From a virus (taxonomy: Duplodnaviria; Heunggongvirae; Uroviricota; Caudoviricetes), in IMG/VR virus record IMGVR_UViG_3300029003_000089: a DNA stretch of 49,856 bases; one strand, 5' to 3'. Made by a program: the position numbers and the translations under genes. This document shows positions 3,944 to 47,321 of this stretch, one piece after another. Position 1 is the stretch's first letter; each line of letters begins with the position of its first letter. The notes beneath the pieces were generated by a model, which worked only from the letters and a program-made list of their open reading frames with translations, ran no database searches and was not told where the DNA came from.

Positions 3944-4177
3944 TTAGGCGGCAGAATTACTCGCGTTAAACAATGGTGCGAGGTCGGGACGAATATCTGC
4001 TGGTTTAATCTTTCCACCAGTGGCTGAGACAATTTTCATTACATAGCGGGCATCAATTCCGCCACCGTGTAGCCAACGCCAAACAGTGGGTTGGGCTACA
4101 CCGCATAGATCTGCCAGTCGTTTTTGACTACCTGTAATACTGATTGCGAGTTGAATGGTTTGATTTGTCATTATCAA
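3944..4177 (-). CDS. Cro/YdaS-like HTH regulator
   Basis: 77 aa; HTH segment GSQKRLADLCGVAQPTVWRW; divergent from repressor gene. Confidence 0.6.
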   Translation of the reverse strand: MIMTNQTIQLAISITGSQKRLADLCGVAQPTVWRWLHGGGIDARYVMKIVSATGGKIKPADIRPDLAPLFNASNSAA

Positions 4178-4281: not shown

Positions 4282-4974
4282 ATGAAAAAAGAAACTCTTG
4301 CTGATCGCTTAAACCTAGCGATGGAACAATCTGGAATGTCTCAAGGCGCTCTTGCAAAGGCGTCTGGCGTAGCTCAACCCACAATCTGGAGACTGACAAG
4401 CGGCAACGCGCGCGGCTCAACAAAAATTGTTGAAATAGCTAATGCATTGGGTGTTCGAACAGAGTGGCTCTCATCAGGCATAGGCCCGATGAGAAATGAC
4501 GGTCAACAATCAGGAAAGCCTGCTGTCAACCATTCCAAATACTTCAAGATTGACGTTCTTGATATAGAAGTCAGTGCTGGGCCGGGCGTCATCAACCGTG
4601 AGTTTGTAGAAGTCCTACGCTCGGTTGAGTACTCGTTTGACGATGCTCGTCACATGTTCGATGGCAGGAAGGCAGAAAATATCCGCATCATTAACGTACG
4701 CGGTGACAGCATGTCAGGAACGATCGAACCAGGTGATCTGCTGTTCGTTGATATCACGGTTAAATCTTTCGACGGTGATGGTATCTATGCGTTTCTGTAC
4801 GACGACACAGCCCATGTAAAGCGCCTGCAAATGATGAAAGATAAGCTACTGGTTATCTCTGATAACAAGAGCTACTCACCGTGGGACTCGATCGAGAAAG
4901 ACGAGATGAACCGGGTGTTCATTTTCGGGAAGGTTATTGGCAGTATGCCGCAGACGTATAGGAAACACGGATAA
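4282..4974 (+). CDS. CI-like repressor, N-terminal HTH plus C-terminal LexA-like S24 peptidase domain
   Basis: ATG at 4282 (MKKETLADRLN...) gives 230 aa, same length as prophage B repressor; C-terminal motifs INVRGDSM and KRLQ typical of autocleaving repressors; ORF track start 4246 is TTG. Confidence 0.85.
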   Translation: MKKETLADRLNLAMEQSGMSQGALAKASGVAQPTIWRLTSGNARGSTKIVEIANALGVRTEWLSSGIGPMRNDGQQSGKPAVNHSKYFKIDVLDIEVSAGPGVINREFVEVLRSVEYSFDDARHMFDGRKAENIRIINVRGDSMSGTIEPGDLLFVDITVKSFDGDGIYAFLYDDTAHVKRLQMMKDKLLVISDNKSYSPWDSIEKDEMNRVFIFGKVIGSMPQTYRKHG

Positions 4975-41747: not shown

Positions 41748-41968
41748 GCTGCACCTCCGAGATGCTTCATGTTTTTTCCGGAGCGAAAGGCTATAAGCGG
41801 CATACTGACGCGGTAACTACGGCCCAGCGGTTCACAAATCACCTTCTGACATTCACGGTCAACCAAGCTAACACGTAGAACATGCCCTGCAGGTGTGGTG
41901 TACCACTGACCCGGACGAGGACAACGGAAAGTCTGATTGGTAAACCGTTTGAAAATATTCCGGATCAT
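41744..41968 (-). CDS. Hypothetical small protein
   Basis: 74 aa ORF overlapping neighbours by 4 bp on both sides. Confidence 0.4.
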   Translation of the reverse strand: MIRNIFKRFTNQTFRCPRPGQWYTTPAGHVLRVSLVDRECQKVICEPLGRSYRVSMPLIAFRSGKNMKHLGGAA

Positions 41969-43113
41969 TTGCGCCCCCTTACCTCTGAAGGGTTCAGCGA
42001 CAAATTTATGAGGCAGGCCAGTGCCGAAGCATCATTAATATAGTCATACAAGCTAACAGCCAGCGGAGATTCGGCTTTTGCCAACATAGGATAAAGCTGC
42101 TGCAGCCAGACCTGATGAATTGATGAAATGTAGGAATAGAGAACGCTGGCGTTATGTGCAACGTCGCTCAGTACAGAGGGATTTGAAAGCTGTTTCTCCA
42201 TCTGGTTAAAGGCATTGATGTATGCCTCTTTGAACTGGGCAGCACGTTTACCCGTGAAACCCATAGCAAGAAACGCAAAGCCGTCGCGGGTTATTTGATA
42301 GCAAGGTAGTTTGCGGCCTGTGCAATCGGTGTAATCACTCACCGAAAAATTGCGGGAAGTGAATGATGCAGAGCATTCAAGCGTGCGGATCTTTTTCAGT
42401 ACATCGTCATGACGTTTGGAGAAGAAGTTGGCAACAGCCAGGGATGAAGTAACAGCCTGACCATCAACGATGGCAATTTCAGGTTGAGTGAGGGTTGGGA
42501 TCGTAGCCATGATGGCAGCCTCCGATAACAGTGAATTACCTTCACCACCGGAAACGCCAATTTCGCTGGTGGTGAACTGAACGGGGTTGGCGTAACCGGC
42601 GTTATCGGAAACCGGCGCACCTTTCGGTGCCCCCGTCCAGCCCACCATAATTTGGGTGTGCACAGACGCAGACGATAAAAAAGACGCTGGCGCGTCATAT
42701 ATCGCCGATAACATTTCCAGGACGCCAATCCCGGCACCCGCTTTATAAGGTGCCTGAACAGTGTAACGTCCCGGAATGGCAGAATCAATGTGCTGGTGGT
42801 CCTTCACACTCAACAAAATCACGCCTGAATTTCCACAAAGGACTAAAGCACTCATGCGGGTAGTCTTTGCGAAGATAGATAACGCGCTGTGTTTCTGGCT
42901 CCCAACGAATAACATGGACATAAAGCCCTCTTCCGTCACGAAACCAGCGGTTAAGTTCCTGCACAACTCGCCCCCCACAGTCAGGTAAAGTTCTCTGTGG
43001 TTACTTACAGACAGGTGATTTGGTAATCTGCATTCATGCCGTAACAACAGGTGTTCAGCGACACTGACCACCAGCTGTTGCGACAAACGGTTATTTGCCG
43101 TTAAACTGTTCAT
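41965..43113 (-). CDS. Rha-family phage regulatory protein with ~200-aa N-terminal extension of unknown function
   Basis: Rha-like block (AVANFFSKRHDDVLKKIRTL...YQITRDGFAFLAMGFTGKRAAQFKEAYINAF) at residues ~215-300; ATGA overlap with upstream gene at 43110-43113; alternative internal start at 42510 with GGAGG. Confidence 0.5.
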   Translation of the reverse strand: MNSLTANNRLSQQLVVSVAEHLLLRHECRLPNHLSVSNHRELYLTVGGELCRNLTAGFVTEEGFMSMLFVGSQKHSALSIFAKTTRMSALVLCGNSGVILLSVKDHQHIDSAIPGRYTVQAPYKAGAGIGVLEMLSAIYDAPASFLSSASVHTQIMVGWTGAPKGAPVSDNAGYANPVQFTTSEIGVSGGEGNSLLSEAAIMATIPTLTQPEIAIVDGQAVTSSLAVANFFSKRHDDVLKKIRTLECSASFTSRNFSVSDYTDCTGRKLPCYQITRDGFAFLAMGFTGKRAAQFKEAYINAFNQMEKQLSNPSVLSDVAHNASVLYSYISSIHQVWLQQLYPMLAKAESPLAVSLYDYINDASALACLINLSLNPSEVRGRK

Positions 43114-43914: not shown

Positions 43915-44011
43915 ATAACCTCCACATATTGCGTGAGAAGCATATTATTTCACGCAAATATTTTGCGCAAGTTGATTTGCTTAACGCGCAATAAAGAAAT
44001 GTAATAAACGC
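43915..44011. promoter_or_regulatory. Divergent immunity promoter/operator region of prophage B
   Basis: Palindromes TTGCGTGA(N13)TCACGCAA (43929-43957), TTGCGCAA (43963-43970) and AACGCGCAA (43983-43991). Confidence 0.55.
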
Positions 44012-44704
44012 ATGAACATAGGAAATCGAGTCAGACAACTTCGCCAGGCGAAGAACATGAAAATCGCCGATCTCGCTGAAGCAATAGGAGTGGATGCGGC
44101 GAATATCTCACGCCTGGAAACAGGTAAGCAGAAACAATTCACTGAACAAGCCCTGAGTAATATTGCCAGGAGCTTAGGTGTTGATATTGCTGATCTCTTT
44201 ACCTCAGACCTCAAAAGTAATACTGTATATAAAAACAGTATTAGTGAGGATGTTGCGCAGGTGAAGGATGTATTCCGTATTGAAATGCTGGATGTCAGTG
44301 CCAGTGCGGGAAATGGCCTTATCCAAGGCGGTGATGTCATTGATGTGATTCATGCCATTGAATACAGAACTGATAATGCTGTATCGATGTTTGGCGGACG
44401 GCCAGCCAATCACATTAAAGTTATCAACGTTCGTGGGGACAGTATGTGTCCAACCATTGAGCCAGGAGATCTCATCTTCGTTGATGTAAGTATCAATCAG
44501 TTTGATGGGGATGGTATCTATGTATTTGGTTTTGATGATAAAATTTATGTCAAACGACTGCAAATGATACCTGACAAACTACTGGTGATTTCTGATAACC
44601 AGATTTACCGTGAATGGGGAATTACCAGCGAAAATGAACACCGGTTTATGGTCTTTGGAAAGGTCTTAATCAGCCAGTCACAAACCCTTAAGCGACACAA
44701 TTAA
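44012..44704 (+). CDS. CI-like repressor, HTH plus S24 peptidase domain
   Basis: 230 aa; C-terminal domain closely parallels the prophage A repressor; N-terminal HTH differs (heteroimmune). Confidence 0.85.
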   Translation: MNIGNRVRQLRQAKNMKIADLAEAIGVDAANISRLETGKQKQFTEQALSNIARSLGVDIADLFTSDLKSNTVYKNSISEDVAQVKDVFRIEMLDVSASAGNGLIQGGDVIDVIHAIEYRTDNAVSMFGGRPANHIKVINVRGDSMCPTIEPGDLIFVDVSINQFDGDGIYVFGFDDKIYVKRLQMIPDKLLVISDNQIYREWGITSENEHRFMVFGKVLISQSQTLKRHN

Positions 44705-44860
44705 CCCTTACCTCCTCATCAATTAGCCACCCGAAGGTGGCTTTTCATTACTCACAAAATTGCACATCTCGCAATAAAAACACTTGCATAATGCGCAACT
44801 TCATTTTATCTTTCTTTCCAGACCAACAAACAAGGTACTAACAAAATTTGGTTGTAACAC

Positions 44861-45185
44861 GGCGTATGGCACATGCGTCGTTAGCGGTCTGGGGACGTTA
44901 AAGGGGACAATCCACTCCTTGCTCGGGCAAACAAACCAGGTAGCCGGAATGTGCAAGTCAATGATGATGCTGATAAGACGCCTAACCAGCGTGGCGATCC
45001 GGTTTGACGCCTGGGAAGAGACCAGGGTGCAACGATGAGGGCATTTATGGAGCCGCGACAAAGTGTGGTGCCGTAACTGGCTAAGTGCTCTCAGCGTTGT
45101 GGTAATCCGCGAAATGGCGCGGCGGTAAGTATGGCGGGGTTACTCTTTCCCCGTTGAGGACACCGGATTGTCAGGTTGACCATAC
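44861..45185 (+). ncRNA. Candidate structured non-coding RNA region downstream of repressor gene
   Basis: GC-rich ~325 nt with no convincing ORF, bounded by 9-bp inverted repeat GGCGTATGG (44861-44869) / CCATACGCC (45177-45185); followed by strong terminator. Confidence 0.25.
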
Positions 45186-45223
45186 GCCTGAGTGACAACC
45201 CCACCACAACAGCCACTGCTTTG

Positions 45224-45270
45224 GCGGTACCAGCTTGTACCCTTGCTTCCGGCTGGTACCGCTCTTTTTA
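45224..45270 (+). terminator. Strong rho-independent terminator
   Basis: 11-bp perfect stem gcggtaccagc / gctggtaccgc, 17-nt loop, then TCTTTTTA. Confidence 0.7.
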
Positions 45271-45406
45271 CAAAACAGAGAAGAGCATCACCGGACGACA
45301 GGCTCATAACCCAATCCATCCGGGCGGCTGCCACCACAGGTGTTCTTCTCTGTTTTGTGGAGAAACTAATCGGCCTTGCAGGGCCGATATGATGAGGAGC
45401 AGCAAA

Positions 45407-45769
45407 ATGGCTAGCGAACGCAGTACTGATGTGCAGGCATTTATCGGGGAGCTGGACGGCGGCGTATTTGAAACCAAAATCGGCGCAGTTCTCAGTGAAG
45501 TCGCTTCAGGTGTGATGAACACGAAAACCAAAGGTAAGGTCTCACTCAACCTGGAAATCGAACCATTTGATGAGAACCGTGTGAAAATCAAACACAAACT
45601 CTCATATGTTCGCCCGACTAACCGCGGGAAAATTTCCGAAGAAGACACCACCGAAACGCCGATGTATGTCAATCGCGGTGGTCGCCTGACTATTCTGCAG
45701 GAAGACCAGGGACAATTACTGACTCTTGCCGGTGAGCCTGACGGAAAACTCCGCGCAGCAGGTCATTAA
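45407..45769 (+). CDS. YfdP-like hypothetical protein
   Basis: ATG at 45407 with AGGAG 8 nt upstream gives 120 aa; size and neighbourhood resemble CPS-53 yfdP-yfdQ-yfdR. Confidence 0.45.
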   Translation: MASERSTDVQAFIGELDGGVFETKIGAVLSEVASGVMNTKTKGKVSLNLEIEPFDENRVKIKHKLSYVRPTNRGKISEEDTTETPMYVNRGGRLTILQEDQGQLLTLAGEPDGKLRAAGH

Positions 45770-46787: not shown

Positions 46788-47321
46788 ATGTCATTTATTA
46801 AAACTTTTTCTGGGAAGCATTTTTATTATGAAAGGATAAATAAAGACGACATCGATATTAACGATATCGCGGTTTCCCTTTCAAATATCTGTCGCTTTGC
46901 CGGTCATCTTTCGCACTTCTACAGCGTCGCCCAACATGCGGTGCTTTGCAGCCAGCTGGTACCGCAGGAATTTGCTTTTGAAGCGTTAATGCATGATGCA
47001 ACAGAAGCGTATTGCCAGGACATCCCCGCACCACTGAAACGCCTTCTTCCTGACTATAAACGGATNNNNNNNNNNNNNNNNNNNNNNNNNNNNNNNNNNN
47101 NNNNNNNNNNNNNNNNNNNNNNNNNNNNNNNNNNNNNNNNNNNNNNNNNNNNNNNNNNNNNNNNNNNNNNNNNTCGGGCTTGATGATGGCTCTTTCTGGC
47201 CTGTACTGGAAGGTATCCCGGCAACAGAGATGTTCAACGTGATTCCACTGGCACCGGGCCATGCCTACGGGATGTTTATGGAACGTTTTAAAGAGCTGCA
47301 TAAGATGCATAAGCAATCCTA
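46788..47321 (+). CDS. YfdR-like HD-domain phosphohydrolase, interrupted by assembly gap
   Basis: N-terminal part MSFIKTF...CRFAGHLSHFYSVAQHAVL...MHDATEAY (HD-type motifs) before the N run; C-terminal part ...FNVIPLAPGHAYGMFMERFKELHKMHKQS-stop after it. Confidence 0.5.
47066..47173. other. Run of 108 N (assembly/scaffold gap)
   Basis: Literal n characters in sequence. Confidence 0.99.

Follow-up and report, generated by a model that had tools for sequence, protein, structure and literature searches.

Conserved RNA modules in the probable early-left leader of a lambdoid prophage, including a candidate pseudoknotted RNA family absent from Rfam 15

The stretch of DNA analysed in this study (the window; 49,856 nucleotides of the tailed-phage record IMGVR_UViG_3300029003_000089, Caudoviricetes) contains an interval of about 700 bp (positions 44705-45406) between a cI-like repressor gene and a yfdP-like gene. 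This interval probably forms the non-coding leader next to the promoter of the early-left (PL-type) operon in a lambdoid prophage of the SfV/mEp460/cdtI type. Comparison with other genomes shows the leader to be an array of four predicted modules on the plus strand, here called A to D, each separately conserved and covarying, and not one RNA; each of them was also found alone or in other combinations in other phages. We are much more confident of this anatomy, and much less confident of the processing steps proposed below, than of the picture as a whole.

Modular organization of the leader

An original prediction, made by reading this DNA alone, had described a GC-rich non-coding region of about 700 bp carrying structured RNA, and both parts of the description were borne out. 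G+C content is 0.545-0.565 between the repressor gene and the yfdP-like gene, compared with ~0.39-0.45 in the flanks; none of the open reading frames (ORFs) listed in the interval has a Pfam match, and insertions and deletions among homologues are not multiples of three. Compensatory base changes, the test for structure proposed in the prediction itself, are abundant in modules A, B and D. We also agree that a retron is unlikely, as the flanking genes are regulators and no reverse transcriptase is adjacent. The four modules are as follows.

44859-45099, plus strand: module A as a whole, ~240 nt, with five helices and a pseudoknot
45099-45207, plus strand: module B, with terminal stem GTGGT/ACCAC, hairpins CCGCG/CGCGG and CGGGG/CCCCG, and two crossing helices
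45220-45270, plus strand: module C, a DicF-like intrinsic terminator hairpin with an 11-bp stem, a 17-nt loop and a U-run (inverted repeat I6)
45270-45358, plus strand: module D, branched, with an 18-19-bp closing stem and inner hairpins, located 5' of an invariant GUGGAGA and the yfdP leader

BLAST searches of phage genomes cut the interval into blocks with differing sets of phages. The block at ~44846-45102 was found in P1, P7, D6, SJ46, phiV10/TL-2011b/SPN1S (Uetakevirus), mEp390 and several Klebsiella and Enterobacter phages, whereas that at ~45096-45218 was found in PPompW-type phages and, weakly and at another position, in P1 and P7. Module A is carried by Salmonella phages as well. The remaining two blocks were shared with SfV-type phages (~45222-45410) and with Salmonella and Klebsiella phages (~45258-45369). 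The modules are also common in complete Escherichia coli genomes: module A in 1637 of 5426 (30%), module B in 4261 (79%) and modules C and D together in 2496 (46%). In these genome records they carry no annotation except an occasional "hypothetical protein".

Searches with the 4227 models of Rfam 15 gave no match over modules A, B or D, either in a scan of the window at gathering thresholds or in a scan at E up to 1 of five other loci with these modules, and a scan of 44500-45600 at E up to 10 returned nothing credible and no riboswitch or ribozyme family. The covariance-model search that the original prediction had recommended was thus negative for these three modules and gave only a low DicF score on module C (see below). 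ARAGORN found no tRNA or tmRNA anywhere in the window. Single-sequence folding z-scores (-1.4, -0.5 and -2.3) are uninformative alone.

Module A, a candidate RNA family

The core and the 3' hairpin of module A consist of the following elements.

44859-45029, plus strand: module A core, covered by a 61-sequence alignment (A2) and a covariance model (R1)
44860-44868/44872-44880, plus strand: helix H1 of the core, with a GCA loop
44888-44892/44936-44940, plus strand: helix H2 of the core
44939-44957, plus strand: invariant strand GGTAGCCGGAATGTGCAAG of the core
44978-44981/44989-44992, plus strand: helix H4 of the core
44984-44987/45001-45004, plus strand: pseudoknot AACC/GGTT between the H4 loop and the strand 3' of H4
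45010-45014/45022-45026, plus strand: helix H5, with a GAAGAGA loop
45030-45099, plus strand: H6a, the 3' part of module A, a long hairpin whose base is conserved (CAACGATGAGGGCATT...AAGTGCTCTCAGCGTTG) and whose tip varies

In a first alignment of eight phages, long invariant strands alternated with variable hairpins and compensatory changes were visible. Homologues were then gathered with the exact invariant 18/19-mer, which occurred at 120 or more loci in IMG/VR and at 27 loci in GTDB species representatives. Twenty-three of the latter were real, all of them from Enterobacterales (one filed under a Bacillota metagenome-assembled genome, MAG); the other four, in Bacteroidales and Oscillospiraceae MAGs and in Azonexus, were chance or coding matches and were discarded. 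Together, IMG/VR and the Enterobacterales of GTDB yielded at least 119 distinct copies of module A, and removal of redundancy at 95% identity left the 61 representatives of A2. All traits of the family are present at 44859-45029, namely H1 with its GCA loop, AGCGGUC, H2, GGUAGCCGGAAUGUGCAAG, H4, the pseudoknot and H5. The family motifs are YUCACCA in the H4 loop, (C/A)ACC:GGU(G/U) for the pseudoknot and GAAGAGA in the H5 loop.

In the counted helices (H1, H2, H4, H5 and the pseudoknot; n = 61), 95.6% of cells are standard pairs, compared with 28-52% when partners were slid by 1-3 columns, and both sides have changed in 13 of 27 pairs. No shuffle among 500 reached the observed value on four of five measures and 3 of 500 did so on further pair types, although the homologues are related, so that this control is not a probability. 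The argument for the fold is carried by the slid-partner control and the number of independent double changes. One pair of the pseudoknot is C-G in 56 sequences and A-U in five, with no mismatches; at least three lineages (the window type and two others, L135 and L153) have the A-U form. Several pairs of module A alternate between G-C and G-U, and hence only the plus strand fits.

Since many members have an asymmetric internal loop in H6, a symmetric-register pair count was dropped for this hairpin, which rests on per-sequence folds. In these, homologues of different sequence give the same hairpin (CAACAGGUAAGAGCAUU/AGUGCUCUUUCCGUUG, CAACAUGAGAGCGCACU/GGAGUGCGCUCCCAGUUG); the base is conserved and covarying, and the tip is variable or branched.

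Covariance model R1, whose seed includes the window sequence, scored 145 bits (E = 1e-43) on the window and found no second copy there. It found one copy per related locus, with the exception of two tandem copies in locus L028, and no match on the HK022 (L159), SfII or K-12 Qin loci. Taken together, the comparative data show module A to be a predicted pseudoknotted RNA family that is absent from Rfam 15. Literature searches with sequence strings of modules A and C returned nothing relevant, and the same was true of keyword searches for the P1 ban leader and for tRNA-like prophage RNAs.

The tandem copies of L028, a single uncultivated phage contig, lie ~800 nt apart on the minus strand (3972-4153 and 4779-4958). 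The second (131 bits) alters strands that are otherwise invariant (GGTC to GGCC, TAGCCGG to AAGCTGG and GGCG to GTCG). We also observed that GCACAU in the H1 loop region (44870-44875) is perfectly complementary to AUGUGC in the invariant strand (44949-44954), a pairing preferred by RNAalifold on a MAFFT alignment. This might be an additional pseudoknot or a different conformer of the RNA. Neither strand varies in the family, which for one of them follows from the way the search was built, and the second copy in L028 leaves both unchanged.

Genomic context of module A

Across the family, module A typically lies shortly after a promoter-like site and is directly followed by a phage tRNA or tRNA-shaped element; in P1 the order is reversed, and module A comes 3' of the tRNA. 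A promoter-like site (at least 9/12) was found within 110 nt upstream in 23 of 61 representatives, compared with one of 60 control segments. Four lineages have only 6-7 nt between the end of the -10 hexamer and H1, so that the RNA would begin at module A itself. In eight representatives tRNA-Arg(UCU) begins at the last base of module A, and in four tRNA-Ile(CAU) precedes module A; phiV10-type phages and a Klebsiella prophage have the end of H6 abutting tRNA-Arg(UCU). In P1-like phages the core, without H6, lies 14 nt after tRNA-Ile(CAU) and ~80 nt before ban. As in the window, module A comes after the repressor gene in mEp390 and many uncultivated phages. At most other loci, what comes after H6 is an element that begins with GUGGUG, finishes with CACCAC and is not called by ARAGORN; some of these have a canonical T-arm and are therefore tRNA-shaped.

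Examples of a canonical T-arm after module A are GCTGGTTCGACTCCAGC (L142) and CCCGGTTCGATTCCGGG (L078). Elements of similar shape (GUGGUG or GUGAUG ... CACCAC or CAUCAC) are also present in the K-12 Qin prophage (L160, 1951-2086), where one of them lies between dicF and dicB, at the reported RNase III site for the 3' end of a 72-nt DicF. In the ban leader of P7, after module B (L163, 537-650), weak matches to permuted tmRNA and tmRNA models (21.5 and 11.1 bits, E = 0.39) were observed, which suggests tRNA-like pieces there.

Module A might have a riboswitch- or ribozyme-like function, governing maturation or expression of the following tRNA, tRNA-shaped element or ban. The size, the multi-helix junction, the pseudoknot and the highly conserved unpaired nucleotides are typical of aptamers and ribozymes, and module A in every case lies just 5' of a downstream RNA or gene and shares its strand. 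We nevertheless consider this very unlikely: there is no evident expression platform (H6 has no U-run after it and no ribosome-binding site (RBS) is sequestered), no Rfam riboswitch or ribozyme was matched even at E up to 10, and the downstream partners of module A are heterogeneous. A further reading, which we put forward tentatively and hold to be unlikely, is that module A represents a new functional class of phage RNA, ~170-240 nt and pseudoknotted, which would sit at the 5' end of early transcripts in many temperate enterobacterial phages (lambdoid, P1-like and phiV10/epsilon15-like) and act on a conserved host machine. It might modify RNA polymerase independently of any protein, through a fold not related to put, or it might be a decoy or inhibitor of a tRNA-directed or RNA-processing enzyme. 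If so, modules B, H6 and the tRNA-shaped elements would be parts of a common grammar of early non-coding operons, of which DicF is the sole piece characterised.

Modules B and C and the dicF locus

Sequence comparison shows that modules B and C are homologous both to the dicF locus of E. coli K-12 and to the first part of the P1 ban-operon leader. The two crossing helices of module B are as follows.

45129-45134/45180-45185, plus strand: crossing helix 1, GTATGG/CCATAC (GCATGG/CCATGC in P1)
45168-45172/45194-45198, plus strand: crossing helix 2, TTGTC/GACAA (UUGCC/GGCAA in P1-like phages)

Together these helices would form a pseudoknot. In ten sequences, the helices of module B are 92.6% paired, compared with 31-61% after sliding, and five pairs have changed on both sides. 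The 115 nt that immediately precede dicF in K-12 Qin (L160, 1755-1870) share ~91% identity with module B and likewise follow an H6-type hairpin. Module B also matches the P1/P7 ban leader at the "dicF-like region" annotated in P1, right after the C1-controlled ban promoter.

These helices also bear on the architecture suggested by the original prediction, in which a 9-bp inverted repeat would close a ~325-nt domain of one lysogen-expressed RNA. The repeat exists and is perfectly complementary (GGCGTATGG at 44861-44869 and CCATACGCC at 45180-45188, the latter given 3 nt off, at 45177), but both arms belong to local covarying helices. The 5' arm makes up the 5' strand of H1, a helix whose covariation is seen in 61 sequences; the 3' arm pairs with GTATGG at 45129-45134, where P1 has the compensatory GCATGG/CCATGC. 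The corresponding segments of P1, GGCGTCTGG in H1 and CCATGCGCC in module B, are mutually unpairable, 2.3 kb apart and in reversed order. Furthermore, modules A and B, with one arm each, occur independently in other phages, and the repeat is one of 22 that are 9 nt or longer within 1.6 kb, which places it at chance level. The single-domain model is refuted by these comparative data and we give it practically no credence. Expression in the lysogen is not supported by the location of the modules either: they lie downstream of a terminator-like hairpin of the repressor gene and of two operator-like sites, of which a matching copy is present between cro and cI. The repressor should therefore silence them, and expression would be expected on induction or infection.

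The 11-bp perfect-stem terminator noted in the original prediction (45224-45270) was recovered as module C: its stem GCGGTACCAGC/GCTGGTACCGC (45224-45234/45252-45262) is followed by TCTTTTT. Module C aligns with K-12 DicF from TTTGGCGGTA onward, and the U-tailed hairpin starts with TTTGGCGGTAYCAG in both. The small RNA (sRNA) DicF is derived from a long untranslated region of the dicBF operon, with its 3' end formed by rho-independent termination or by RNase III and its 5' end by RNase E, and its single-stranded 5' arm pairs with xylR (PMC5069750). That paper does not describe conserved structures around DicF. In the literature searched on K-12 dicF, the upstream spacer is an untranslated region, and module B and the H6 hairpin are undescribed as conserved structures.

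It may be asked whether the product of the leader is simply a DicF orthologue, that is, an Hfq-dependent sRNA of ~55 nt from the leader 3' end that represses ftsZ and other host mRNAs, the rest being a processing scaffold. The order of elements is collinear with K-12 dicF (H6-type hairpin, module B, DicF-like hairpin with U-tail), and positions 12-52 of the Rfam DicF model (RF00039) align collinearly to 45220-45264. Shared traits are a rho-independent terminator hairpin inside a repressor-controlled prophage operon and synteny with the Qin sequence upstream of dicF; the biology of DicF itself has been described (PMC5069750). On the other hand, RF00039 gave no match in the gathering scan of the whole window and only 12.1 bits (E = 1.6) in a 96-nt search, compared with a gathering threshold of 48 bits, so that by the Rfam criterion module C is a diverged DicF-like terminator hairpin and not DicF. 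The window has a gap of ~23 nt relative to K-12 TTATCAATTTTCTGGTGACG, which corresponds to the 5' arm of DicF (UUUCUGGUGACG), and the loop is UUGUACCCUUGCUUCC in place of UUUUACUCCGUGACUGCUCU, with loss of the CUCC that faces the ftsZ Shine-Dalgarno sequence. The predicted duplex of module C with the ftsZ leader (-32.3 kcal/mol) was equalled or bettered by 48% of shuffles, compared with 11% for the genuine DicF-ftsZ duplex (-38.5 kcal/mol), in a method that ignores accessibility. The strong constraint on modules A, B and D would also be left unexplained. A DicF orthologue thus seems to us quite improbable, and module C may be a terminator only.

That the RNA might belong to an unrecognised system, as originally suggested, holds for module A, which has no match in Rfam 15, and does not hold for modules B and C, the counterpart of a known locus.

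Other sRNA families were also considered. The anti-sRNAs AgvB and AsxR had been suspected from a CA-rich stretch before the terminator; they belong to the PR' moron site and are in Rfam, with no match here, and the CA-rich stretch is the 3' strand of the module B terminal stem. Pas sRNAs and STnc100 have a different context and no match in the window. An STnc100-like match (39.1 bits, gathering threshold 47, E = 8e-6) was observed between module B and a kil gene in phage vB_Apl-pPE4 (L162, 1466-1650), indicating that STnc100-type sRNAs are also present in such early leaders. The host in that record is Actinobacillus pleuropneumoniae, yet the region is 85% identical to E. coli prophage DNA.

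Module D and H6-type hairpins

A second hairpin after the terminator, placed at 45271-45354 in the original prediction, is present as module D. Its outer arms of 18 nt (45270-45287/45341-45358) are 94% complementary. In 11 diverged sequences (alignment A6), 97.1% of cells are paired, compared with 37-53% after sliding, and six pairs have changed on both sides. By eye, the base of the module D stem (ACAACA..AGAGCAU / GUGCUCU..GUUGUGUGG in relatives) is like the base of H6; the window may thus carry two hairpins of the same type, each followed by GUGG.

The H6-type hairpin (CAAC..AGAGCAU...GUGCUCU..GUUGUGG) was observed as an independent unit that recurs in these leaders: at ~555-640 in P1 (L004), at 1676-1757 in K-12 (L160), and in the window at 45030-45099 and 45270-45358. 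Its 3' strand often contains UGCUCUUU, the core of the boxA consensus of rrn operons and lambda nut sites, here base-paired; this could be a coincidence.

Coding potential

Protein coding offers another explanation for the conservation, with small genes at 45140-45337 (minus strand) and 45192-45392 (plus strand), as annotated in several phages. These two ORFs, which overlap modules B to D, match the PHROG families phrog_3651 (7e-36) and phrog_33599 (2e-13), both of unknown function, and "hypothetical protein" annotations cover the region in mEp460, cdtI and some RefSeq genomes. However, the window ORF spans only the last 75 of 162 PHROG profile positions, and the reading frames are broken in 5 of 11 homologues for the minus-strand ORF and in 2 of 11 for the plus-strand ORF, with 1-nt indels among homologues of module D. 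Substitutions in modules B and D are compensatory for RNA pairing, the small ORFs have no Pfam match, and the K-12 counterpart is the untranslated spacer between ydfC and dicF. In module A, core lengths modulo 3 are spread evenly (22, 20 and 19). We therefore regard a coding origin of the conservation as highly improbable; phrog_3651 and phrog_33599 are probably ORF calls over conserved RNA genes.

Neighbouring genes and boundary signals

The features that bound the array are as follows.

44012-44704, plus strand: cI-like repressor gene with Pfam Peptidase_S24 (6e-19) and helix-turn-helix (HTH) families, the upstream boundary
44725-44742, plus strand: terminator-like hairpin ending the repressor transcript, AGCCACCCGAAGGTGGCT then TTTTCATT, from a consensus scan
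44760-44774 and 44784-44798, no strand assigned: two operator-like sites TTGC-N7-GCAA, the putative left operator (OL), from a pattern search
44784-44812, plus strand: putative PL, with -35 TTGCAT, a 17-nt spacer and -10 TATCTT (7/12 of consensus), overlapping the operator-like sites
45369-45409, plus strand: small hairpin ATCGGCCTTGCAGGGCCGAT (45369-45388; inverted repeat I22), RBS and start codon, read from the sequence

Upstream of the S24 repressor gene, Pfam identifies a cro-like HTH gene and a Phage_CP76 CII-like gene on the opposite strand; yfdP/yfdQ-like ORFs are the neighbours on the other side. This gene layout is that of a lambdoid immunity region, in which the interval occupies the position of lambda OL/PL and the start of the early-left operon. 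In the SfII record, a rho-independent terminator is annotated at the same place as the 44725-44742 hairpin, directly after the repressor stop codon. TTGC-N7-GCAA occurs five times in the whole window, compared with 1.5 expected, and three of these copies are the two sites here and one at 43977 in the gap between cro and cI, the sole other clustered copy. Direct repeats D3 and D5 also join the operator-like stretch to the cro-cI intergenic region. In phages with a different repressor (cdtI, Stx2c phages and 2H10), sequence is common only from ~44840 onward, as expected if immunity-specific operator and promoter stop there and a common leader begins. About 590 nt separate the putative PL from the first early-left gene, which starts with ATG at 45407 after an RBS GAGGAG at 45394-45399. 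It is named yfdP-like from annotations of related phages, is not N-like and has no Pfam match.

Two observations concern the wider neighbourhood. A run of 108 Ns (masked or unsequenced; 47066-47173) breaks the ORFs of the early-left gene block. About 2 kb upstream of the interval, the gathering scan identified a C4 antisense RNA (82.8 bits) beside isrK (63.7 bits) at 42565-42753 on the minus strand, within a 382-aa ORF (41965-43113, minus strand). The C-terminal part of this ORF is a Phage_pRha antirepressor domain (residues 222-307), and residues 117-212 give a Pfam Phage_ASH match on the same nucleotides as C4 and isrK. This is either a protein-RNA overlap or a case in which the N-terminal half of the ORF, and perhaps the Pfam family too, is a translated RNA locus. 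The C4/isrK/antirepressor arrangement resembles that of P1/P7 immI.

Proposed expression of the leader

We propose that the repressor silences PL in the lysogen, and that once it leaves the operator-like sites, transcription would start near 44819. Most transcripts would stop at the DicF-like terminator (~45270), giving a ~450-nt non-coding RNA with modules A and B, and host RNases would trim it to stable pieces. The junction between A and B may be cut by RNase P or RNase E, as at loci where a real tRNA follows H6, and RNase E may cut upstream of the terminator hairpin, as for DicF. Read-through transcripts would carry module D, whose long stem before the RBS is a likely RNase III or translation-control element for the yfdP-like gene and later early genes. 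If most transcripts stop and some read through, the terminator would serve to attenuate transcription that passes from an early non-coding RNA unit into the early-left genes. As a working guess, the released modules A and B might bind a host factor in trans during early lytic development.

Several points weigh against this picture. The hexamers of the putative PL are weak relative to consensus, and this promoter is absent from the promoter-scan list. The plus strand of the array is assigned from covariation only. As homologues of module A were gathered with an exact 18/19-mer, that strand is invariant by construction and diversity is under-sampled, and the relatedness of the homologues limits the shuffle control, as mentioned above. 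Cutting by RNase P at the A-B junction is deduced from position, whereas ARAGORN calls no tRNA there and module B is without a canonical T-arm. The departures of module C from DicF and the PHROG matches over modules B to D, both described above, also count on this side.

The main rival, unlikely in our judgement, takes module A as a cis-acting modifier of RNA polymerase in the nascent RNA, like HK022 put, which would allow read-through of the DicF-like terminator without an N-type protein. Its appeal lies in the arrangement of the leader. Module A comes immediately after early promoters, most closely in the four lineages with a -10 hexamer 6-7 nt before H1; in phages with HK022-type operator sequences it stands in the place of putL; here and in mEp390-type phages, a strong intrinsic terminator lies between it and the early-left genes; and the first gene after PL is not N-like and has no Pfam match. 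The long invariant unpaired strands likewise point to contact with a conserved host machine. But module A has no likeness to putL: blastn of all family members against the HK022 immunity region was nil, as was R1, and put is a two-stem element of ~73 nt (PMC9378689). A single copy of module A is present in the window, and likewise in the mEp460 and cdtI loci, which include both early promoters; the PR side has none, whereas HK022 has putL and putR. Moreover, module A of P1 lies 2.3 kb downstream of Pban, after the terminator of the leader. In phiV10-type phages module A stands at the start of a unit that is very short and finishes with a tRNA and a single small gene. We favour the reading of the interval as a PL-type leader whose modules would be released from an early non-coding transcript.

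Comparison with known systems and significance

The dicF type of locus (modules B and C) was already known; the uncatalogued module A appears to be new, and the structures flanking DicF are neither described in the literature searched nor annotated in the records examined. Although the genomes that carry the modules include some of the most closely studied (E. coli, P1, Stx and cdt phages), the modules are unannotated or labelled "hypothetical protein". Module A is well supported and a candidate for inclusion in Rfam as a new family.

The large RNAs GOLLD and ROOL, reportedly described by Weinberg et al. in 2009 and 2017, are said to be phage-associated and to adjoin tRNA genes, with function not known. 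Like module A, they are ornate and strongly covarying RNAs of temperate phages, often beside tRNA genes; however, they are 500-800 nt long and found mainly in Firmicutes, whereas module A is ~240 nt, was found only in Enterobacterales in our sample, and has no Rfam match to either. The N-leader of lambda carries nutL and an RNase III-sensitive hairpin before the N RBS. Module D is likewise a long stem (18-19 bp) between PL-proximal RNA signals and the first early-left RBS, but no N gene, boxB hairpin or sequence similarity was identified.

Module A shares with HK022 put its nature as a strand-specific, promoter-proximal structured RNA in a PL leader, with no N-type antiterminator gene and with terminators ahead. 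The two differ in that put is ~73 nt with two stems and follows both PL and PR (PMC9378689), and module A is ~240 nt, single-copy and also found far from promoters. Should transcription, or tRNA or RNA processing, be the target of module A, this would have implications for how N-less lambdoid phages pass the terminators of their early operons.

The closest relatives of the leader are in P1/P7 and K-12. The ban leader of P1/P7 belongs to a repressor (C1)-controlled early operon and is, like that of the window, a long non-coding leader, with tRNA-Asn, -Thr and -Ile. In P1, module B and a terminator come right after the promoter/operator, followed by an H6-type hairpin and then by the module A core, after trnI and before ban. 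The order is thus B...A, 2.3 kb apart and with module A lacking H6, whereas in the window A and B adjoin in the order A then B; the P1 record annotates the "dicF-like region" and nothing over module A. The dicF region of K-12 Qin is at the same place as the window leader, downstream of a repressor (DicA or cI) and upstream of early genes, but it has no module A in the R1 search, and the protein genes ydfABC precede its RNA block, which comes first in the window. In this way, the dicF locus, the P1 ban leader and the PL leaders of N-less lambdoid phages are linked as one family of modular early non-coding transcripts.

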